Source of the DNA: a virus
Taxonomy: Duplodnaviria; Caudoviricetes
Direction: 5' to 3' (one strand)
Length of the DNA: 64,000 nt
IMG/VR virus record: IMGVR_UViG_3300046642_000423
Coordinates: 1,031-65,030 of that record
Position numbers and translations under genes: made by a program. Positions 43,931 through 61,661 of this stretch are shown one piece after another. Below the pieces are notes generated by a model that was given only the letters and a program-made list of their open reading frames with translations, made no database searches and was not told where the DNA came from. Positions within the stretch are counted from its first letter, which is position 1; the number at the start of each line of letters is the position of its first letter.

Positions 43931-44923
43931 ATGAATAACGAGGTGGATCCGATCGATTGCATTGTGCAGGAGCTGACCGGCATGGAGCCGGAAGCGTCCA
44001 CGGAACCGCCGCAATCAACTGATTACACATACCTTTACGATAGATTGACTACTCTAAAGACGCACCAAGCGTCCATTACCCGTGACATCGCCAGCATTGA
44101 ATATAAACTCGGCATCTCGAAGGATGCGCGGACGGAATGGAAATGCTTACGCTGCCATCATCGCTGGCAAGGTGGCTCCCTTCCGCCTACTCGCTGCCAA
44201 CGTTGCAAATCACCATGCTGGTTCAAAGCGCCGCGCACCATGCGCGATCGCCATCCAGAGGATAAGCCTGCCAAATCTTGGTACAAGCCAACTGGGCGCC
44301 CTCGAGGTCGTCCTCCTGGGACTCCTAATAAACGTGTCTATTTTGCCACACCTGTCGAGGTTCCCACTCAGCCTGGGCCATCGCAGCTTCCACCGCTGGA
44401 CCTGCCGCGACTGGGAAATGCGCCCGCGGCGCGCGCGCCGGCTAACCTTGCTGCTTCGGCAGCATCTCTACCTCCTCTACCAGCTCCATCCGTACCCTTG
44501 CCGGCGCCTACGTACGAGTATCATCTCTATTCGTCACCCGCGCGACCGCTTGCCGAACGCTTGCGCCAACTCTCACAGGAACCGCCGCAACCGGAACATT
44601 CATCCAGTTTCAGTGATGAATATATGAAAAGCGCAATAAAAGAAGGCAATCGTCTAATCGCCGAGGAAATTATTCGCATTGGTGGAGTTTCTGATGAGCC
44701 GCCTGCACAGCCTGAATCATTCGGACCTGGCCAGCTATATTCCAATCCACCTGCTTATATCCAGAACGTAGAATCCCCAACCGAGGTTACTGATGAGCCC
44801 GTCAACATTGAAACCGTCGTCGAAGGGTGGGATGCGCGCATGGAAGAACGACCGTCCGACCTTCCCGACGTCCCAGATCCCCTCTCCGACGACCTACCCG
44901 ACGATACCGATCGCAGCGACTAA
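43931..44923 (+). CDS. Zinc-finger/AT-hook protein with Pro-rich and acidic tail
   Basis: CLRC...CQRC, TGRPRGRPP and a disordered C-terminus. Confidence 0.65.
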   Translation: MNNEVDPIDCIVQELTGMEPEASTEPPQSTDYTYLYDRLTTLKTHQASITRDIASIEYKLGISKDARTEWKCLRCHHRWQGGSLPPTRCQRCKSPCWFKAPRTMRDRHPEDKPAKSWYKPTGRPRGRPPGTPNKRVYFATPVEVPTQPGPSQLPPLDLPRLGNAPAARAPANLAASAASLPPLPAPSVPLPAPTYEYHLYSSPARPLAERLRQLSQEPPQPEHSSSFSDEYMKSAIKEGNRLIAEEIIRIGGVSDEPPAQPESFGPGQLYSNPPAYIQNVESPTEVTDEPVNIETVVEGWDARMEERPSDLPDVPDPLSDDLPDDTDRSD

Positions 44924-45232
44924 CTGTTCCTGGTCCCTGCGTTTGCTCATCTCCAATCGTTGGGAGCATTGCTGGCGTGCCATCTGCACTGCCCATGCGC
45001 GCCGCTTCCACGATCCCACCGCCCATCTCCACGCCCTGCGTGAGCTCCATGCCCAGCGCATCATTGCCCTTACGCGCGCCGACATCCGTCAGAAAACTAT
45101 CTTCCGTTTCGATCTCGACTCGCCCACCATCTCCGATGAAGAGTTCCAACACGAACTCGACTGGGCCGTCAAGCGCCGCATCATGTATGCCGAGCATGGT
45201 AGAATCCGCAAAGTGAAAGGGAAAATCGCACA

Positions 45233-45736
45233 ATGCCAACCAATAACGAACGCATCGCCAACACCGCTCTAAGCGGAGGTGAAGTCAAGCAACTCATCCG
45301 TGCCGACTGCGACACTCTGCTCGCTGCTGAGGGCATGCTCTCCGATTATGTCGCCTACGGCCGTATGGGTTACCGCCTCACCCTCGCTCTCTACATCGAT
45401 AACCCACATCACCCGCGCTCGGAATCTCACATCGTTTCGCGCCCGCATGCTACCGCTGAGATTGCTATCAACCCTCCACTCGCCGCGGTGGAAACGCCTC
45501 CCCTCACATCGCCATCAGAGGAATCCGCTATAGGTGCAACCTCTCTCTCGCGCAACATTTCCTCGCCCAATGCGGAGCGACTGCGCGCCAACCTACCCAT
45601 TCCCGTCGCCGTCCTTCAGCAAGACGGCACAACCATCATCAACATGGTTCGTTATCCCGCCAATGCCAACGTGGATCCGGGTGATATTGTGATTGATGAT
45701 GTGACGGAAGCTGCCCTGGCAGAGTGGAAGCGCTGA
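45233..45736 (+). CDS. Hypothetical protein
   Basis: 167-aa ORF coupled to the next gene. Confidence 0.65.
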   Translation: MPTNNERIANTALSGGEVKQLIRADCDTLLAAEGMLSDYVAYGRMGYRLTLALYIDNPHHPRSESHIVSRPHATAEIAINPPLAAVETPPLTSPSEESAIGATSLSRNISSPNAERLRANLPIPVAVLQQDGTTIINMVRYPANANVDPGDIVIDDVTEAALAEWKR

Positions 45737-45966
45737 TGGCTCTATTCGCCAGTCTGCGTGCCGTTGTCTACTTCCGCCGTGGCGTACGTGCGCTCGAGCG
45801 CCTAGCCGATGCGACCGAATCCCTCGCACGCATTGCCGAATCGGATCACAAAGTGAAGACAACTGTGCGCAAGCCGCGTCCCACTGAGTTCTTTCAAATG
45901 GACACCAAGGCTGCCGAAGAAATCTATGAACGTGACCGTGCGGAACGGGAAGCTGAGTTAAGCTGA
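45736..45966 (+). CDS. Hypothetical protein
   Basis: TGATG coupling at both ends. Confidence 0.6.
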   Translation: MALFASLRAVVYFRRGVRALERLADATESLARIAESDHKVKTTVRKPRPTEFFQMDTKAAEEIYERDRAEREAELS

Positions 45967-46106
45967 TGATCTATAATATCTACACGAGGTTCTGGGCAGA
46001 AATAGCTGATATGTTTAAGGTGTGTAAGCCGATTAGAAACTTTGCCCTAGTGAGAGTACATAGATATCTCAAATGGGATTTTGCAGATCCAAGAAATAAC
46101 TGAGCC

Positions 46107-46352
46107 ATGGATAGACGCAGATTCTTATCGCTCACAGTAGGCGGTATAACCGCCGCCGCAGCGGTGCGCACATTTCCATTCCGTGTGTTCAGTTTTCCAT
46201 CCGATATTGTCATCCCGGCCGTCCACGAATCAACATTCGATGCAATCAATACAGCTACATTGGAAGGGCTTCGTGAAGGCGTATGGATGGATACCTTTTT
46301 TGTTGATTCTGCTTGGATAAAGCGAATGGCCGCAGATATAGGGTTAAGCTGA
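46107..46352 (+). CDS. Tat-signal mini-protein homologous to the major capsid protein N-terminus
   Basis: MDRRRFL + hydrophobic stretch; TFDAINTATLEGLREGVWMDTFFVDSAW vs capsid TFDQISATTLADLRDDILYDNFFVDTAW. Confidence 0.75.
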   Translation: MDRRRFLSLTVGGITAAAAVRTFPFRVFSFPSDIVIPAVHESTFDAINTATLEGLREGVWMDTFFVDSAWIKRMAADIGLS

Positions 46353-46555
46353 TGAAATACAATGAAAAAGAGTGGCAACTTGAGCTATGGAAGGTAGTCA
46401 TTGCAGGTTGTTATGATCGAGTGGAAAAAGGAATCGCCACTGAGAGAGATAAGATTTACATAGAAGCATGGGAAATGGCTGAAGATCATCTTGCCGAAGC
46501 TCCTGTTGTCATTGATCGTCCATTCTTTGAGTTAATGAAAGAGAAGTGGTCATAA
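46352..46555 (+). CDS. Hypothetical protein
   Basis: TGATG coupling; AT-rich. Confidence 0.55.
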   Translation: MKYNEKEWQLELWKVVIAGCYDRVEKGIATERDKIYIEAWEMAEDHLAEAPVVIDRPFFELMKEKWS

Positions 46556-46558
46556 TCC

Positions 46559-47293
46559 ATGGACCGCCGCGCTCCCATTACCCGTGATCTCTACCACAAA
46601 GCTCTCGCCAAACTCCTCGTCACGCCCACCGATGTCCAGCAGGCCCCACGCGTAACGCCTGACCTGCGTCGCATCTGTGCCGCCATTGCTGAATCTCCCA
46701 TGAACATTCCTTCTGACCCATTCTATTACCTTGCCGCATCGCCCGATCCAGACGCGCGCCGTATCCTCAATGCGAGAGAAAAACTCACTCCCGGCCAGCG
46801 TAAACTCGTTCCCATAGAAGCGCTCTGCCTCTCGGTCAACGTCGCTCCTCATCGCGTACTCGAGATGGTCACTGCCGCTGCCGTGCGTATCGGCGCCCAA
46901 GGTGATCGCATCGTTGCCGCGGTATCCCATATGGGTGTCGTTCAACACACTGTGAAGATGGCCTTAACTCCCATGGGAATCGCCGACCGCATGGCCCTGC
47001 ACAAAGCTACCGGCTTTATCGAGTCCCCCAGGGGTGCGCATACCACGGTGAACGTAGCAGCCAGTGCGCGTGCCGACGCACAATCCAGTCCTACTGTGCA
47101 GAATGCTATCGTCGCCGCTCCACCACCCGAGCGCACCATCCGCACTCTTGTCGATCGCTTCAATGAGCGCCGCGCCGCCCTTACGCCGGCCCCTGTGCGA
47201 GAACTGCCTATGCCAACCGATCCAATTCTGCCAACCGATCCAATTCCCACCCGCGAAATAGAAATGGTTCCCATTGAAGACGAAGACGAATAA
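46559..47293 (+). CDS. Putative terminase small subunit
   Basis: Immediately upstream of TerL and helical; assignment is positional only. Confidence 0.45.
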   Translation: MDRRAPITRDLYHKALAKLLVTPTDVQQAPRVTPDLRRICAAIAESPMNIPSDPFYYLAASPDPDARRILNAREKLTPGQRKLVPIEALCLSVNVAPHRVLEMVTAAAVRIGAQGDRIVAAVSHMGVVQHTVKMALTPMGIADRMALHKATGFIESPRGAHTTVNVAASARADAQSSPTVQNAIVAAPPPERTIRTLVDRFNERRAALTPAPVRELPMPTDPILPTDPIPTREIEMVPIEDEDE

Positions 47294-49519
47294 ATGTACG
47301 CCCTCAATAAAATAAGAGAGCGCATCCACGAAGCTGAACTCATCTACCAGCGTTCCTTCGAGCCTCACACTCCCGCCGAGATCGACGACTTCGAACGTCA
47401 CCTCGTTGCCTCGAACATGTACGTTTACGACTCTTACGGCAAGCCTACTTCCACGCAGAACCTCACCGAGTTTGAGTCGGACTGGATGCTCAATGAACAG
47501 GTCCTGATCCTGTGTGACGCATCCTACTTTCTCACCCGCTATGCTTTCCTCAAGGATGAAGAGAACATCATCCACCGTTTCTCCTTCCGCGTTCCCCAGC
47601 ACATCCTCTACGAAATCATCTGCGACCTTGAATCGCGCGATGCCGCCATCGAGATTATGATCCTCAAGGCGCGCCAGCTGGGCTGTTCTACCCTCATCGA
47701 ACTCTTAATTGCTCATAGAGTAATCTTCTCCTACGGCATCAACGCCATCATCGGTAGCGCCGACCAAACAAAAACTGGCCTCATGGGCAACATGCTCTTC
47801 CTCGCCTACGACATGCTGCCACGATGGCTGCGCCCTGACTCGACGCGTCGAGTGGAATCCGACCGCGGCATGTTGGTATTCGGCCACACCGCATCCGGCG
47901 TATCCTTCCAGCACGGTGCTCAGACTTCTGGCATTGCGCGCGGCACCACACCTACCATCTACCATCTCTCTGAATGCGCATCTTTCACCAATGCCGCACA
48001 GCAAATCGAAGCGTCTCTATTCAAGGCGGTTCACGCTTCTCCCAGCGTATTCGGCGTGCTTGAATCCACCGGCGAGGGTGACAAAGGCTGGTGGCCAGAC
48101 ACCTGGCGGCACGCCAAAGCCAACTGGTCAGACAATCGTTCGCGTCTCTGCCCTATCTTTCTGCCATGGTTCTGCGGCGTAGACATCTGGCCCACACCCA
48201 CTTGGCGCCGCACTCATCCTGCTCCACCAAGTTGGCGTCCCACCAAGGAAACGCGCGAGCATGTCGCCAAGGCGGAACTCTACGTGCGTTCCAATCCCCT
48301 GCTTGAGCGCCATCTCATCAACCACCAGCGTGCCACCGGTGAACTCTCCACCGACAATAAATACCGCATGCCTTCCTATCAGCAATGGTTCTGGGAGGTC
48401 GATCACGAAGAACACAAGAACAAGGGTATCGAGTCTATTTTCCTACAAGAAATGGCAGGTGATGATGAAGAAGCGCTCCAACGCAGCAGTGAATCCGTCT
48501 TCGGACACGAGACGATCCAGTTACTCGACGACCATCGTATTCGAGACTACCGAGTATACGGTCTATCCGGCCAGTCCATTGAATCCGCTCACGAACCTCC
48601 CACGGACGACATTGATTATGATTTGGAGCGCATCCCCGTTCGCTACTCCTCCATGCGCGCAGAAACCTACCGTTGGGAACTGATTCCACTGAGATTCTCG
48701 ACTCCCTTAAATGAATCCGTTCCCGAGGATGCTTCCGGTAAGCTAATCGTCTTCCACCCACCCACTCCCGGCGTTACCTACTCCATTGGCGTGGACACAT
48801 CGCAAGGCAAGGGTGCCGACTCCACGGTCATCTCCGTCTGGTCAGTCGGCGAGGGTACTCAGCAAGATCAGCAATGCGCTGAGTTCGCTTCTCCCTATGT
48901 GAACCACGTAGAAGCATTCTCCTTCATCCTCTGCATCGCTGCCTACTACGCTCAGTACATGGAGCAAGGTGTCACGCGTTGGAAAGAACCTCTGGTTTCG
49001 ATCGAACAATTAGCCGCTGTAGGCGACACCGCACAGAATCAGATGAAACAAATGGGCTACAAGAACTTCAATCGCTTCTCACGTTATGATGGTAAGAATC
49101 CCGCTAAAAGTAAGCGCATGGCGACCCGCAATGGCTGGTTCACTACTGCCTGGTCACGCCCACTTCTTCTTGTCAACTACATCACCTGCGCTAAAAACAA
49201 CTGGTCGCAGATCAATTCTCCCTGGCTGATCAACGAAATGAAACATTTCGAGGTCCACGTGACCGCTACCGGCAAGGAAAAGCTCGAGCACGAGGAAGAC
49301 GAGCACGATGACCGCATCTTCGCGGCCGCCATCGCCATTTTCTGCCCGCATGACATGGATAAACTCGCATCGCGCTCTAATAACCGCCTAACCGAACTCG
49401 TCTCCGCCCCTCCTATAGACCTCTCACCCTATCGCGGCCAAGTCATCACCCAATCCCAACTCCGTAACTCCTCTGAACTCACCCTCAACGATCTCATTTA
49501 CACAAATCGACGTCGGTGA
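47294..49519 (+). CDS. terL: Terminase large subunit
   Basis: [11 protein letters not shown] Walker A, YHLSE Walker [14 protein letters not shown] and HDDRIFA nuclease motifs. Confidence 0.93.
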
Positions 49520-49535
49520 TATACAGTTTCCACGC

Positions 49536-49808
49536 ATGAATATCGTCTATCCGCAGCCGAAAGAGATTCGCACGATCGAAACGGTCACCACGGGTCCCGC
49601 TGGACCGATAGGACCTGCCGGCGATCGTGGTGAACCTGGAATGCCAGGAGTCAGAGGTATATCGGGCAAGGATGGCGAGCGCGGCCCGCGCGGATTCACT
49701 GGCGATCAGGGCCTTCCCGGCAAGGATGCTCCCGTCCACATCCAATACATGACCTATCTGCTCCTGATCGTTCAACTTCTTGAAATTGTTTACTTGGCGA
49801 CTCGCTAA
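49536..49808 (+). CDS. Short collagen-like protein with C-terminal hydrophobic helix
   Basis: [16 protein letters not shown]... followed by [17 protein letters not shown]. Confidence 0.7.
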
Positions 49809-50245
49809 TGGCCAACTCCATCCAGAAGAATCCCAATGGCCCTCTCTGGCCGCTCGGTTTTATTGCCGTCGTTACTCCCGGCACGCCCGTCTCGTTCATG
49901 TCTCTGGTAGATCCCACGAACGACAACGCGCCCGACGCTCCCACCTCCACAACTTCCGCCGAATACACTCCACGCTGTCAAGAGTTCATCATCACCGCTC
50001 AGAAACCCGGCGCAGCGCATGGCACGCAACTCAATACCGGCAACGTGTACATCCTCATTGCACCGACGCCCACCGGTTCAGGCAACCGCGACGACATGGG
50101 CTCGCTCATCCTACCCATGGTCCCCGGCGCGGTTTTCTTCCTCTCCTCCGCCTTCATCAACCTGAACGTATGGTCGCCCTACAAACTCCTCGTAGACGCC
50201 GACAACGCCGGAGATGGCGTGCTCGTAACCATGGTTATCCAGTAA
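49808..50245 (+). CDS. Virion protein, paralogue of 15026..15472
   Basis: End-to-end similarity with 15026..15472. Confidence 0.75.
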
Positions 50246-50249
50246 TCCA

Positions 50250-51692
50250 ATGGGCATAACCGACTACATCGCACCGGGCGGCAGCGGCGGCGGTGGAACG
50301 CAAGGTCCCCAGGGACCGCAGGGACCGCAGGGTACGAATGGTGCCGCTGGCGCGCAAGGACCGCAAGGCGTACAGGGAGTCCAAGGAGCAACTGGATCGA
50401 CTGGTTCAACTGGACCTCAAGGGGCGCAAGGGTCCACGGGAGCCCAGGGTTCTACGGGCGCTCAGGGCGCAACGGGATCAACTGGCGCGCAGGGTGCTCA
50501 AGGTAGTACTGGCGCGCAGGGCGCAACGGGCGCTCAAGGTGCGACTGGTTCACAGGGGGCCACCGGAGCCCAAGGCGCTACAGGGGTGCAAGGTGCAACC
50601 GGAGCGCAAGGCAGCACAGGCGCTCAGGGCGTACAAGGCGCACAGGGCAGCCAAGGTTCTACCGGAGGAGTCTCGCTCCTCTATACCTTCAGCACTACAA
50701 CCACCACACCAACTTCCAATAACGGTCAGATCCGCTTCAACAACGCAACTTTTGGCTCGATCACGCACGTCTATATCACCCGCCAAGATCGCAACACAAA
50801 CGATCTCACTGCCACACTCGCGCTCATTGTAAACGGCACCACACTCGAAACATTCCAAGAATCCACGCCCGCGACTTTCGCAACTTTCAGCGTGACCGCA
50901 GCCTCGCAGCAAACCAACTACTACGATTACACTGTCACACCACTCTCGGGCGCGATTCTCACAAACAATGCGAACTCTGCCGCCAGCTTCTCCGCTACCG
51001 GTCCACAAGGAGCACAGGGAGCGACCGGCGCACAGGGAGTTCAAGGTGTGCAAGGTGTGCAGGGAGCAACCGGTGCTCAGGGTGCGCAGGGGGCCCAAGG
51101 TGTGCAAGGACCACAAGCCGCCGGTAACGCAGGCGACACAAAAATCTCCGCCATGTCTTCTGGCTTACCGGGCACTCTTTCCGATCAACTCGTCATCGCG
51201 CGCAGCGGTTCCAACTTCAATCTTCCATCGGCGGCATTCTTCGTGCAAGGCGCTCAGTTCTCCGCCACCGCCACTACTCCCACTTCCATTCAAGGCTGCC
51301 AAACCACGGCCGTGCTCGCTGCATCTGCGACCTACCATTTCAATGCCATCATTGGCGTGCAAGGTGTGGGCATCCAAGGCTACCAGTGGGGATTCCAATG
51401 CACGCAATCCGGCGCCCACCAAGGCAGCGCCATGAACGTAAAAGTCAGCATGGGACCGCAAGGAACGGTTGCCGCCGCCACAGGATTCCAATCCTACTTA
51501 GCTGTTGGCTTTGGCATCCAAGGCGCGCAGGGCGGTGGTGCGGTCGGCAATAGCTGGATGGAATGTGATGGTGTCTTCACGACCAATACCGTCGCGGGCA
51601 GTGTATTCGGTATCCAGATCCAAGGGAAACAAGCCACCGTTACGCCCGCCATCCTCGCCAATTCCTATCTCAAAGTGGAGCGTATCGCATGA
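50250..51692 (+). CDS. Collagen-like fibre protein
   Basis: Two (G-X-Q/T)n tracts separated by beta domains. Confidence 0.8.
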
Positions 51693-53442: not shown

Positions 53443-53989
53443 CATCCCTGGATGGATGAGCGAAAAAGAACTCGCCTGGCTGGCTGACACTGCCAAGGGA
53501 TATTTCTCTATTGTGGAAGTCGGCTCATGGCGTGGCCGCACAACGAAAGTTCTTGCCGACAACACGCGCGGGCATATCTTCGCCGTGGATACCTGGGACG
53601 ACAATGCGATCGGATATGAAGACAGCTGGACCGTCGCTGACCGTGAACTCGAACTCTACTCGCGTCCTGACTGGCTCTTGCAAGAGTTCCAATACAATTT
53701 GCGCGACCATCTCGGCGGCAAGCTCCTAGCGCTGCGCATGACTTCCAAGGCCGCAGCCAGCCTGCTCAAATCGAACATGCTAACCTTCGACATGATCTTT
53801 CTCGATGCAGACCACTCTTACAACTCTGTGTGTGAGGACATTTTCACATGGCGACCTCTCCTGCGCCCGACCGGACTCCTTTGTGGCCACGACTTCAACG
53901 ATCCACGTTGCCCAGAAGTAGCCGCCGCGGTGCGCAGCCTTATCCCCGATGCACGAGTAGCCTGCGATACGATTTGGTGTGCTCAGTGA
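53432..53989 (+). CDS. Methyltransf_24-like O-methyltransferase
   Basis: IPGWMSEKEL, VEVGSWRGRTT, FDMIFLDADHSY and LCGHD; GGAG SD + TTG. Confidence 0.9.
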   Translation: MSTSIPGWMSEKELAWLADTAKGYFSIVEVGSWRGRTTKVLADNTRGHIFAVDTWDDNAIGYEDSWTVADRELELYSRPDWLLQEFQYNLRDHLGGKLLALRMTSKAAASLLKSNMLTFDMIFLDADHSYNSVCEDIFTWRPLLRPTGLLCGHDFNDPRCPEVAAAVRSLIPDARVACDTIWCAQ

Positions 53990-55758
53990 GATATTCCATA
54001 ATCACACCAACCGTCCTGCGCGAATCTCTACTGAAATGCTGCGAGTCAGTCGATCGTCAGACAAATAGCTCGTGGGAACATCTCATTATGGTCGATACGG
54101 AACTCTCGACCGACATCCTCGTTCGCATCGAACATCCGCAACGCCGCATCATCCGTTGCGATCGTCCACATCGCAATTGGGGCCATACCTGCCGGCATAA
54201 CGCCTACTCTCTAGTTAAGGGTGATTACATCTACCATCTAGATGACGACAACGTATTTGCCGATGACAATGTGTTGAGAGACATGAAGTGCGTCACATCT
54301 GACTGGGCACTCTTTCCCATTGACCATGCCGATCCACAATTCGGCAAGCACTTCTTCAATGATCCACCGGGAATAATGAAAGCGGACACTGGAAGTATCT
54401 TAGTCAAGCGTGGGATTGCTCGCTGGCCAGACCTGGATCGCTATGATTGTGATGGCGTGTTCATCGAGCAATTAGTCAAGCAATTCCCTAATTACCAAGT
54501 GTTTCCAGATATGCGTTCGATTATGGTTATGGGAGCATCCGGCAGTGTACTAGTCGAGGTGAAGTCTGGCAACCGTGTGAGCATCTACACTGCTTCACAT
54601 TCCAATGCTTACCTGCGCGATACCTACGATTCCATCAAAGATCAAGACTTCCACGAATGGATCATCGCTTACAACAACGGTGGCGTGCCCACCAACTTTG
54701 GCGATTCACGAGTCAAGCCAATGGTTCTATACAAATCCCCCGAGCGTGTCGGCGCACTGAAATCCTATGCTTGCGAACAATGCACTGGAGACATTCTTCT
54801 CGAACTCGACCATGATGATCTCCTGATGCCCACCGCGATCGCCGAGGTCCAGCACGCCTTCGAGGATGAAGCTATCGGCTTCGTCTACTCGAATTCCCTC
54901 CATGTCACCGAATCGCTCGATCCGATGCCTCGCTACGATGAATCCTTCGGCTGGCGATATCGTGAGGTCACCTTCCGCGGCAAGAAACTCGATGAATTTG
55001 TGTCGTTCCCGCCAACCCCTGAATCTGTATCGCGCATTTGGTACGGACCCGACCACCTGCGCGCATTCCGCCGCTCCATCTACCAACAAATAGGTGGTTA
55101 TGACCAGTCCATGACCATTCTCGATGACTCCGATCTCTGTTGTCGCATGTACCTTGCCACAAAGATGCTGCACATCGACAAGCCACTCTACGTCTACAGG
55201 GTTCATGGACAAAACTCATGGTTACGTTTCAACGATGATATCCAAAGAGGAGTCTATTCAGTCTACGATAAATACATCGAACGGATTGTAGATAGATGGG
55301 CTGAAATGAATAGTAAGTTCCAGTTCCCAAAACTTGAGATAGGCTGCAAATCTAGCGCACGAGATGGTTATATCGCGACATGGACCATAGATGATTTCCC
55401 TGAAAGTTCCGCAAGTGTGATTCGCGCGACAGATTCCCTTGCTATGTTGCCAAATCCTATGCAAACAATGAAGGAAATATCCCGCGTGTTGCGTCCCGGC
55501 GGCTGGCTCATGTGCCAAGTACCATCCACCGACGGCCGCGGTGCCTACCAGGACCCTCGCCACATCACTTTCTGGAACGAAAACTCCTTCCTCTACTACA
55601 TTAACCGCAACTGGGCGCAGTACATCGATACGCCCGCGCGCTTCCAAGCCACCCGACTCTACACGACCGAACCGAACGCCAATCGAGTTTGTTGGACCGT
55701 TGCGCATCTCATCAATCTCAAGGATAACTACCGTCCTTGTGGACTAATCGACATATAG
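53986..55758 (+). CDS. GT2-GT2-methyltransferase fusion
   Basis: YSIITPT...YHLDDDN; second GT-A domain with LELDHDD and GGYD; C-terminal MKEISRVLRPGGW...GAYQDPRH methyltransferase-like domain. Confidence 0.85.
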   Translation: MRYSIITPTVLRESLLKCCESVDRQTNSSWEHLIMVDTELSTDILVRIEHPQRRIIRCDRPHRNWGHTCRHNAYSLVKGDYIYHLDDDNVFADDNVLRDMKCVTSDWALFPIDHADPQFGKHFFNDPPGIMKADTGSILVKRGIARWPDLDRYDCDGVFIEQLVKQFPNYQVFPDMRSIMVMGASGSVLVEVKSGNRVSIYTASHSNAYLRDTYDSIKDQDFHEWIIAYNNGGVPTNFGDSRVKPMVLYKSPERVGALKSYACEQCTGDILLELDHDDLLMPTAIAEVQHAFEDEAIGFVYSNSLHVTESLDPMPRYDESFGWRYREVTFRGKKLDEFVSFPPTPESVSRIWYGPDHLRAFRRSIYQQIGGYDQSMTILDDSDLCCRMYLATKMLHIDKPLYVYRVHGQNSWLRFNDDIQRGVYSVYDKYIERIVDRWAEMNSKFQFPKLEIGCKSSARDGYIATWTIDDFPESSASVIRATDSLAMLPNPMQTMKEISRVLRPGGWLMCQVPSTDGRGAYQDPRHITFWNENSFLYYINRNWAQYIDTPARFQATRLYTTEPNANRVCWTVAHLINLKDNYRPCGLIDI

Positions 55759-60401: not shown

Positions 60402-61661
60402 GTGGCTGACAAATTTGGATATCCTGTCCGTCGAATCAGTACTCGCGTCGTCATCGACATGGAGTCGATGCAAGTTGTCGAGCGCGATTCGTACGACTAT
60501 TCAGGGCCGATGGCGCTCGCCGCGGACCCGACTTTCGACCAGATCAGCGCCACGACTCTCGCAGATTTGCGCGACGACATCCTCTACGATAACTTCTTCG
60601 TAGACACTGCTTGGTTGCGCAAGCTCCGCGTTTCCGGTGCACTCGATGAGTTCCTCGGCGGCACGCTCATGCAAACGCCATTCCAGTATGACCGCGTGAA
60701 CGGCGGCGCGATCGCTCCCGGCTCTGACGTGACGGTCATGCAGAAGCAGATCCTTGCGGCGACGGCATTCGTTCCCAAGGAATACGTCGAGCAAGTTCCC
60801 TTGAACCTGTTCCAGACGAATGTCGTCCAAGGATCCGGTCCCGCGGTCAAAGTGAAGATTGTCGATGCCTACATGTCCAACGCCGTTCAGGCGCTCAACA
60901 CCGACATCGCCATCGACTTCTATCGCCACGGTCAATCGATCTCTGGCAGCAACCGCATAATCTACATCAACGGAATCTCCGAGGCGCTCAACGATGGTGT
61001 CAATCCCTCCTGGGATGGCAACGTATTCACGACCTACGGTGGCCAGTCGCGCAACGGAGTGGTTGGCAACACGCTGAACTCAGTTCCGACATGGGTAGGC
61101 GACCAGGCCGGCAACACAGGTCAGATCACCTACAAGCAGATCGTCGAAGCATATCTCAACTGCGTGCAGCGCCCTGACATTGGCCTGTGCAACAAAGCTC
61201 TCTACGCCTATCTACTCGAGCGCCAGGAACCGAAACAGCGTTTTGAGATGCAGCAGGACGTATCGATCGGCATGAGCGGCCTCAAGGTACTCGACGGCAT
61301 GATCTTCGAGGACAAGCTGGCTCCTTCGACCAAGTACGGGACGATCCTCCCGTCCGGCCTGTCGCAGACGACTTCGATCAAGCCATCCACCTTCACCACG
61401 CCAACTCTCTCGGCAACCCAGTCGGCCATCTCGAACTTCCCATCCGTGACCTCTTGCAAGCCTGGTGAACCGTTCTTCTGGCTGCGCGCCAAGGGTTGGA
61501 AGCTGCGCCCCTCGGCCGACCCAGAATACAATTTCAACTTCACGCCGCCGATCCGTTCGCAAACCAACGCGGATTTGATCGTCATGTTCCTCAAGGCGGC
61601 CTTGAATGCATACACGACCTCGCCGCGTGACAACTGGCAGTTGATCGGCGCCGGCTTCTAG
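60402..61661 (+). CDS. Major capsid protein
   Basis: Strong SD; TTLADLRDDILYDNFF...FLGGTLMQTPFQY pattern of HK97-fold capsids; consistent synteny. Confidence 0.8.
   Translation: MADKFGYPVRRISTRVVIDMESMQVVERDSYDYSGPMALAADPTFDQISATTLADLRDDILYDNFFVDTAWLRKLRVSGALDEFLGGTLMQTPFQYDRVNGGAIAPGSDVTVMQKQILAATAFVPKEYVEQVPLNLFQTNVVQGSGPAVKVKIVDAYMSNAVQALNTDIAIDFYRHGQSISGSNRIIYINGISEALNDGVNPSWDGNVFTTYGGQSRNGVVGNTLNSVPTWVGDQAGNTGQITYKQIVEAYLNCVQRPDIGLCNKALYAYLLERQEPKQRFEMQQDVSIGMSGLKVLDGMIFEDKLAPSTKYGTILPSGLSQTTSIKPSTFTTPTLSATQSAISNFPSVTSCKPGEPFFWLRAKGWKLRPSADPEYNFNFTPPIRSQTNADLIVMFLKAALNAYTTSPRDNWQLIGAGF

Follow-up and report, generated by a model that had tools for sequence, protein, structure and literature searches.

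A small phage gene that joins a Tat-type leader to a segment resembling the N-terminal region of the phage's major capsid protein

A 64,000-bp stretch of DNA from an uncultured, soil-type tailed phage (IMG/VR record IMGVR_UViG_3300046642_000423, bases 1031-65030; referred to here as the window) carries an open reading frame (ORF) of 81 codons at 46107-46352 on the plus strand. The product of this mini-gene joins a leader of the twin-arginine translocation (Tat) type to a tail that resembles a short segment of the phage's own major capsid protein. The leader heads a large family of small proteins and is conserved by selection on the protein. The tails that could be assigned to a donor match capsid-type proteins, the gene is optional, and its tails turn over. 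The reading favoured here, to which a probability of roughly one in three is given, is that the mini-protein is a mimic of the N-terminal arm (N-arm) of the coat protein which may be routed to the Tat pathway or the membrane and used against host capsid sensors or rival phages. An initial annotation, made from the letters of the window, had presented the gene as a capsid mimic with an export-type leader. As a description of a gene under selection this was supported.

The mini-gene and its capsid-like module

The mini-protein is 81 aa long and starts with MDRRRFLSLTVGGITAAAAV. The twin-arginine leader noted in the initial annotation has the features of the motif. The gene begins 3 nt past the stop codon of the preceding ORF and its own TGA overlaps the next ATG (TGATG). 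Residues 41-74 of the mini-protein align to residues 42-75 of the capsid protein in one ungapped segment, with 15/34 positions identical and 24/34 positive (BLASTP, E 1e-9). The initial annotation had given an ungapped alignment with 15 of 28 residues identical, and a separate count over that 28-residue stretch gave the same 15 identities. The ungapped BLOSUM62 score was 91 compared to 25.5 ± 3.7 (maximum 44) for shuffled tails. None of 300 shuffles reached 91, and the concern that the alignment might not be significant against shuffled controls was not borne out. The mini-protein was also matched by the hidden Markov model (HMM) of the cluster that represents the window's capsid type (c36, positions 3-38, E 3.6e-8).

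The likeness is confined to one place. When the complete genome (65,030 bp) was searched in six frames, only the mini-gene and the capsid stretch were matched. No further capsid-like piece was found when the capsid was searched against the whole window by tblastn, and downstream of the module only weak, probably chance matches were seen. With 34 residues in common with the capsid the mini-protein is not a full-length coat protein of the HK97 fold. The remnant of a whole decayed capsid gene was considered and ruled out, as the cassette that holds the mini-gene has no further capsid-like stretch.

At the DNA level 53/102 bases are identical between the mini-gene and the capsid stretch and the third codon positions agree in 9/34 cases. 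The capsid copy in the mini-gene is therefore old and diverged and the likeness is kept at the protein level only. The tail is 44% identical to the capsid and retains 9 of the 14 positions that are invariant among capsids (F44, D45, T51, L52, L55, D62, F64, F65 and V66). There were 454 homologues of the capsid protein, and these were 77-93% identical over the 120 clusters listed, so the tail is far more diverged than the capsid it copies. The statement in the initial annotation that the gene copies the phage's own capsid has to be qualified in this respect. The two genes start 14.3 kb apart, in agreement with the 14 kb first given.

The capsid protein was assigned by its match to a PHROGs family. 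It scored 51.6 bits against NF033394 (capsid_maj_Podo), which is below the cut-off of 80. The start codon was placed at GTG 60402, which is preceded by AAGGAG. The resulting N-terminal extension (36-41 residues; motif ISTRVVIDMESM..ERDSY.Y.GP) is conserved in nine homologues of 416-422 aa. A capsid start at Met37 was dropped on account of the AAGGAG and the retention of the extension in these nine homologues. The common form of the capsid is 380 aa in most of the relatives listed; two starts were read as MADPTFDQ and lack the extension. The similarity to the mini-gene begins where the extension ends, as the initial annotation had stated. The extension may be a propeptide or a scaffold-like part of the protein itself.

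The capsid stretch that the tail resembles is presumed to be the N-arm. This assignment is made from its position and by analogy with phage P22, because the AlphaFold2 (AF2) model of the capsid, made from 28 close homologues, was unusable (predicted local distance difference test, pLDDT, 37.7). A PDB profile search with the capsid alignment gave no matches at E ≤ 0.01. In P22 (PMC9965877) the N-arm helix of the coat protein is described as binding scaffold in the procapsid and reaching the neighboring subunit after maturation.

A family with one leader and many tails

A word-index search gave 67 candidates, 66 of which were small proteins at E ≤ 0.01. A phmmer search against 1.84 billion representatives returned 647 clusters at E ≤ 1e-3, this number being clusters at 50% identity from one query. 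The 150 clusters listed ranged in size from 62 to 180 aa. A search for longer carriers of the leader added 10 proteins of 143-219 aa. The leader was not found on full-length capsid or host proteins and none of its carriers exceeded 219 aa. It was found in 52 viral contigs and in 140 metagenome stretches, of which 80 were kept. The exact mini-protein is present on 20 contigs. Only two species-representative genomes carry the leader and both are Acidobacteriota metagenome-assembled genomes (MAGs). TatC is present in both. The family was defined by a leader that ends in [FW]PFRV[FY]SFP no later than residue ~45, in proteins shorter than ~220 aa, and the window mini-protein has this motif at residues 23-31. 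The initial annotation had named a lack of conserved homologues among the outcomes that would speak against it; the same design of a leader followed by a capsid fragment proved abundant.

No match to the leader was found in PHROGs or PADLOC with 100 members, and family member P0018 had no tblastn match among GenBank phages. No family with the combination of leader and coat segment was found in Pfam, NCBIfam, PHROGs, PADLOC or GenBank phages. No publication on Tat leaders joined to capsid fragments was found in the literature searched.

The family leader reads M-[DN]-R-R-x-F-L, followed by a Gly/Ala-rich stretch and R-T-[FW]-P-F-R-V-[FY]-S-F-P, with complete divergence beyond. Residues R3, R4, F6, A19, P24, F25, R26 and S29 were invariant in 100 members. 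In the window the residues D2-R3-R4-R5-F6-L7-S8 follow the Tat consensus S/T-R-R-x-F-L-K near the N-terminus. The Gly/Ala-rich L7-V20 and the R21 and R26 that follow would correspond to the hydrophobic region (h-region) and c-region of a Tat signal. A cleavage-type site was seen in 51 DNA copies, with A19 (-1) invariant, Ala at position 18 in 49/51, and A, T, S or G at position 17 (-3). Four elements link the leader to Tat signals and Rieske-PetC anchors, namely the RR-x-F-L motif, a hydrophobic region that is short and rich in Gly and Ala, basic residues that follow this region, and a small-x-Ala site. Unlike ordinary Tat signals, whose sequence is not conserved, the leader of the mini-genes is near-invariant and runs on into an 11-residue motif without counterpart in them. 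The passenger also differs from known Tat substrates in being a fragment of a cytoplasmic virion protein and not a cofactor enzyme.

Weak matches to Tat or anchor models (PF10518, TIGR01409, PF25471, PF10399) were found in 53, 31 and 2 of 100 members. PF10518 (TAT_signal) was matched by 53 at E ≤ 1 with a best value of 1.3e-4, and the PetC Rieske anchor was matched weakly by 31. Mimicry of the Rieske anchor, suggested by matches to TIGR01416 and TM_PetC, was rejected as a specific mimicry. The PetC matches span residues 1-21 only, which is the generic twin-arginine part, no Rieske domain was present, and the two Acidobacteriota MAGs held no longer protein with the leader, the only leader relatives there being the mini-genes themselves. 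By its sequence features the leader is classed as Tat-type; it is not a model-confirmed member of a Tat family.

In a codon test of the leader (51 DNA copies) all synonymous codons were in use for the invariant residues (Arg CGN and AGR, Ser AGY and TCN). The pattern points to selection at the level of the protein and rules out a conserved element of DNA or RNA or an attachment (att) site. The ratio of nonsynonymous to synonymous substitution rates (dN/dS) was ~0.09-0.3 for the leader and 0.26-0.95 for the tail in 12 informative close pairs of 42-69 codons, the pairs not being independent of one another. Synonymous sites in the window's own tail were saturated against every relative for which DNA was available. 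From these sequence comparisons the mini-gene is taken to be a real gene with a protein under selection and not a decayed remnant.

The same data bear on the explanation that the mini-gene is a decaying, functionless leftover of a partial duplication of the capsid gene and that its twin-arginine look arose by chance. The age of the copy, the 44% amino acid identity and third codon positions at chance level would fit such a leftover, as would the failure of the window mini-protein to match Tat models. It is contradicted by hundreds of intact homologues with synonymous-codon turnover and by the identical protein on 20 contigs. The capsid similarity is also one in-frame stretch without remnants around it, and the cassette is an insertion of foreign composition and not a local duplication. 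This explanation is close to refuted.

To identify the tails, the ORFs of 52 viral loci and the window were clustered, HMMs were built for the 44 clusters with at least three members, and 245 tails were searched. Matches to any HMM were obtained for 48/245 tails. All 48 fell in three capsid-type clusters, with 16 tails each. Cluster c36 is the window's capsid type and cluster c19 is P22_CoatProtein/phrog_283. The third, c2, contains a protein of ~425 aa at the capsid position of its genomes, and is called capsid-type on the basis of synteny (terminase, c1, c3, c2) and of an atlas lead to clusters with 12% SU10_MCP members. No Pfam match was found in 16/16 members of c2, hhalign detected no relation to the window-capsid alignment, and a PDB profile search gave one chance match (E 0.84). 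The terminase cluster (c4), c1 with its 22 members and the remaining large clusters were matched by none of the 245 tails. A second match, to c5 or c29, was seen for two of the 48 that matched a capsid-type cluster.

Other searches gave a similar picture. By BLASTP 52/245 tails had a match and for 45 of them the best match lay in the three capsid-type clusters. Pfam identified an HK97-type capsid in 4 of 100 members and a portal in 1. In a six-frame control with 105 tail DNAs, the reading frame gave 23 capsid matches and the remaining five gave 0; the single match outside the reading frame was an overlap with a neighboring gene. N-terminal capsid pieces made up 33/48 assigned tails and 18/32 when c36 was left out, the c36 share being inflated because the query was of the c36 type. 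In 5/5 loci that hold both an assigned tail and a capsid-cluster gene the tail type was that of the resident capsid, and this was also the case in the window. The 20 other tails of the window's subfamily agreed with the capsid consensus at 55% of the 14 invariant positions compared to 32% of the other 21 (permutation p 0.001). This bias is not an artefact of discovery since positions where the window tail differs are included. Tail subfamilies persist over saturated synonymous divergence.

Several tails had an unusual composition. Two metagenome proteins, P0049 and P0160, each fuse two non-adjacent capsid pieces. A third, P0075, combines a capsid N-terminal piece with the C-terminal 180 residues from the product of the gene that follows the capsid gene in locus L039. 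In L027 (10001-12163) two tandem leader genes stand directly upstream of a capsid-type gene and their tails match residues ~65-100 and 290-345 of its protein. In L010 (9255-10375) there are two leader genes at a distance of ~750 bp. They have the leader in common as well as 29 identical residues of the tail, and the first continues into a near-copy (43/49 aa) of the neighboring gene's antisense strand. Judged from these sequences, L010 is a recent rearrangement that created a new tail.

One explanation for such turnover is that the leader is the active part, being membrane-active or occupying the Tat machinery and so disturbing the host membrane or export, and that the tail is a tolerated passenger. 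Tails would be replaced by rearrangement and capsid pieces would merely be the commonest survivors. The leader is indeed far more constrained than the tail in dN/dS, 197/245 tails have no detectable donor, the new tail in L010 came from the antisense strand of a neighbor, and two close relatives carry unrelated tails at one site (see below). Random capture predicts donors from all genes and frames, however, and what was found was 48/48 capsid-type and 23 in-frame matches against 0. The preferential retention of capsid-invariant residues in 20 diverged tails and the persistence of subfamilies over saturated synonymous divergence also speak against a passenger tail, which is considered distinctly unlikely.

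A second explanation is that the mini-protein is exported and acts outside the cytoplasm, in the envelope or as a phage-specific signal. It would be cleaved after A19 and a ~60-residue acidic peptide would be released or anchored. Capsid ancestry would then have supplied a foldable or recognizable module and the target would not be the capsid. No sequence feature of a cleavable Tat signal is missing from the leader, which has the invariant -1 Ala and a small residue at -3, and 53/100 members match PF10518 weakly. Secreted peptide signals, of which the AimP peptide of the arbitrium system is an example, are also laid out in this way, with a conserved leader ahead of a tail that is hypervariable and specific to the phage. 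The near-invariant RTFPFRVFSFP would form the mature N-terminus, suggesting a second conserved contact beyond the translocon. Export to an outside target nevertheless leaves the in-frame capsid tails, the retained invariant residues and the match to the resident capsid unexplained. No conserved receptor-like gene was found beside the mini-genes, where neighbors vary. This explanation is unlikely, though less so than the passenger tail.

The initial annotation had placed the gene in an AT-richer cassette, and this was confirmed. The insertion at 45966-46555 has a GC content of 0.431, while its two flanks have 0.564 and 0.554 and the capsid gene has 0.58. Seven syntenic relatives with terminases 54-64% identical lack the 590-bp stretch. 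In L057, L060 and L062 the homologue of the 80-aa gene at 45724-45966 directly abuts the homologue of 46559-47293. No leader was found in the 12 related loci scanned. The same site holds a leader gene in two other relatives, L017 (7700-8420) and L029 (9790-10390), in which the flanks are 83% and 90% and the leader 68% identical. Their tails are unrelated and of different length, and the next gene is homologous again exactly from its start codon on. In L028, a further relative, the leader gene follows the terminase gene. The mini-gene is an optional accessory gene and the family exchanges its tails rapidly.

Leader genes occupy many different sites in head modules and their neighbors differ between loci. 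Among 47 non-duplicate loci 19 were co-oriented with both neighbors, 12 were antisense to both, 11 lay at a strand switch and 5 were undetermined. The leader gene adjoins the capsid gene in many loci, such as L027, L035 and L049. No gene cluster co-occurs with the mini-gene across the 47 loci.

This distribution bears on a role as a helper of the phage's own head assembly, in which a membrane-tethered N-arm would nucleate, localize or time the assembly of procapsids, for instance by keeping scaffold or coat at the inner membrane. Such a role would suit a gene that lies in the packaging and head block, is coupled to its neighboring ORFs, adjoins the capsid gene in many loci and has a tail type matching the resident capsid. 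The N-arm is also the scaffold-binding element in P22 (PMC9965877). Against it, seven syntenic relatives lack the gene at this site, two close relatives have unrelated tails, the capsid, which the tail would need to fit, diverges much more slowly than the tail, and the gene is antisense to the surrounding head genes in 12/47 loci. An assembly helper is improbable. The optional presence of the gene among close relatives likewise argues against an essential procapsid tether, one of the roles put forward in the initial annotation.

Possible roles in phage conflict

No tyrosine integrase and no serine recombinase or resolvase was found in the complete genome. The phage is therefore probably virulent, and a prophage-expressed exclusion factor is argued against in this genome. 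The mini-protein would presumably be made during lytic growth because its gene is co-oriented and tightly packed with the terminase genes and there is no integrase. A role as a conflict gene in lytic growth, rather than in basic assembly, is favored because the gene is optional and fast-changing and is carried by a phage without integrase.

The mechanism favored for such a role has the following steps. The mini-gene would have arrived with the 590-bp AT-rich insertion upstream of the terminase genes. The leader would most likely take the mini-protein to the host Tat translocon or the inner membrane, where it may be cleaved and released or anchored with the N-terminus in and the C-terminus out. 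The tail would mimic the capsid segment and compete for a partner that recognizes the coat N-arm. Candidate partners are a host sensor of the capsid protein, the scaffold, or the coat subunit of a co-infecting relative. The leader would then hold or remove the bound peptide at the membrane. No protein of tailed phages is more conserved than the major capsid protein, which is a known target of bacterial pattern-recognition defences. Avs sensors bind it, among other phage proteins (bioRxiv 10.64898/2026.01.04.697583).

Several points weigh against this mechanism. The main weakness is that export would part the tail from the capsid, scaffold and sensors, which are all cytoplasmic. This is a problem alike for the decoy, dominant-negative and Tat-tether roles proposed in the initial annotation. 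The interaction would have to occur before or at translocation and this is unsupported. The window mini-protein had no match to a Tat model (Pfam at E ≤ 0.1, NCBIfam at E ≤ 10, and at E ≤ 1). The relatives seen individually scored 10-18.5 bits compared to cut-offs of 16.7 and 22.7 (22.7 for PF10518), all below, and TM_PetC scores were 12-14 bits compared to a cut-off of 37.1. The curated cut-offs have little power as a test because the Tat models are very short. With 197/245 tails lacking an assigned donor, capsid mimicry covers only a fifth of the family. The window tail has lost 5/14 invariant positions and is less than half identical to its own capsid. The tail dN/dS amounts to weak constraint and single pairs are indistinguishable from neutrality. 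The AF2 model of the mini-protein was of low confidence (pLDDT 64.9; helices at 3-22, 43-59 and 69-78). No promoter-like site was found upstream on the plus strand and no terminator-like site in 45000-47500, the promoter search being for the sigma-70 consensus only. A complex prediction of the capsid with tail residues 32-81 scored 0.00 in both runs, which were made without controls and are evidence neither way.

A broader and somewhat less probable possibility is a modular system of 'fragment interference' common to the phages of one host group. The leader would serve as a routing tag and a recombination handle for a fast-turning library of in-frame capsid pieces, mostly N-arm, that act as dominant-negative or decoy peptides. 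Readers of the coat protein, such as host sensors or the assembly partners of a rival, would be dragged to the membrane or translocon. If true, this would be a protein-level counterpart of decoy-based immune evasion for which the virus draws on the most conserved protein it has. Conflict between phages and hosts or among phages would gain a move of a new kind, and protein-fragment inhibition a natural case. The puzzle of why the N-arm of a cytoplasmic shell protein should be sent to the Tat pathway stands even if the mechanism favored here is wrong.

Capsid segments are known as defence triggers from the Gol peptide of T4 gp23, which acts with the Lit protease, and from CapRel. The mini-gene is like Gol/Lit, CapRel and the capsid-sensing Avs proteins in that a short capsid stretch would be the recognized element in phage-host conflict. 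In those systems, however, the element lies within the full capsid and triggers the host, whereas here it is a separate, leader-tagged phage gene. Small proteins of phage satellites, such as CpmB and Ccm of the Staphylococcus aureus pathogenicity islands (SaPIs) and Sid of P4, disturb or redirect coat-scaffold contacts in head assembly. In contrast to the mini-protein they are satellite-encoded, cytoplasmic, without an export leader, and not copies of a coat segment, Ccm having the whole coat fold. There is no satellite context at the mini-gene.

Phage morons, such as HK97 gp15 and lambda bor and lom, offer another comparison. Like a moron, the mini-gene is small, optional and foreign in base composition and lies between late genes that are conserved; morons are also often membrane-directed. 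It differs in having no promoter-like or terminator-like site of its own in the window and in resembling a structural protein of its phage, which classic morons do not copy. As the phage has no integrase, expression from a lysogen is unlikely. The mini-gene also differs from precursors of ribosomally synthesized and post-translationally modified peptides in having no conserved modifying-enzyme or leader-recognition neighbor in 47 loci. Protein fragments of tens of residues can inhibit the interactions of their parent protein in vivo (PMC9245647; FragFold, PMC10769210), a principle on which the mimic reading draws. Those fragments came from laboratory libraries of E. coli proteins, and no natural, evolving library of leader-tagged fragments in phages was described in the papers searched.

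Genome context and minor observations

The record is 65,030 bp long with direct terminal repeats and is rated 100% complete. No relative was found among GenBank phages by blastn of 44000-50000. The features that relate to the mini-gene are listed in Table 1. Family searches with the putative scaffolding protein gave no match. In L017 and L029 a homologue of 283 aa precedes the capsid gene. The putative scaffolding protein, identified by its position and sequence, is a possible partner of a coat N-arm.

Table 1. Features of the window related to the mini-gene and the capsid gene
Feature	Position	Strand	Basis or remark
AT-rich insertion, 590 bp, with three small ORFs (45 aa, mini-gene, 67 aa)	45966-46555	+	GC 0.431
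Mini-gene, 81 codons and stop (leader, linker, capsid-like module)	46107-46352	+	ORF, translation, 647 homologous clusters
Leader, residues 1-31: twin-arginine motif	46107-46199	+	R3 R4 R5 F6 L7; Gly/Ala-rich h-region 7-20
Leader, residues 1-31: small-x-Ala site A17-A19, then conserved motif R21-P31 (RTFPFRVFSFP)	46107-46199	+	Invariant residues in family
Linker, residues 32-40 (SDIVIPAVH)	46200-46226	+	Length and sequence vary across family alignment
Capsid-like module, residues 41-74	46227-46328	+	BLASTP, tblastn, shuffle control
C-terminal 7 residues (AADIGLS) and stop	46329-46352	+	Capsid similarity stops at residue 74
Large terminase	47294-49519	+	phrog_2 and further terminase families; opens packaging/head module downstream of cassette
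Putative scaffolding protein, 281 aa	59533-60378	+	Directly upstream of capsid gene; Ala/Glu/Lys/Arg-rich sequence
Major capsid protein, 419 aa, podovirus/T7-like type	60402-61661	+	phrog_9953 major head protein, E 1.5e-9
Capsid N-terminal extension, residues 1-41	60402-60524	+	AAGGAG 7 nt before GTG 60402
Capsid residues 42-75, stretch resembled by mini-gene	60525-60626	+	First conserved stretch of the family; 14/35 positions invariant in 28 capsids

The ORF at 46559-47293 (244 aa) has no family and also begins with MDRR. Its first 60 residues (46559-46738) matched residues 304-363 of the capsid weakly (E 0.001, subject of 1.5 kb). This match was not recovered in the whole-window search; it looks compositional and is probably due to chance. 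Between the terminase and the head genes, 53848-55758 encodes a protein of 636 aa with two glycosyltransferase-like stretches and a C-terminal methyltransferase-like stretch, all far below NCBIfam cut-offs. Collagen-like proteins with Gly-X-Y repeats are encoded by a short ORF at 49536-49808 and by 50250-51692 (480 aa). In the window ~6 kb (49.5-55.8 kb) separates the terminase from two genes that directly follow the terminase in L017 and L029.

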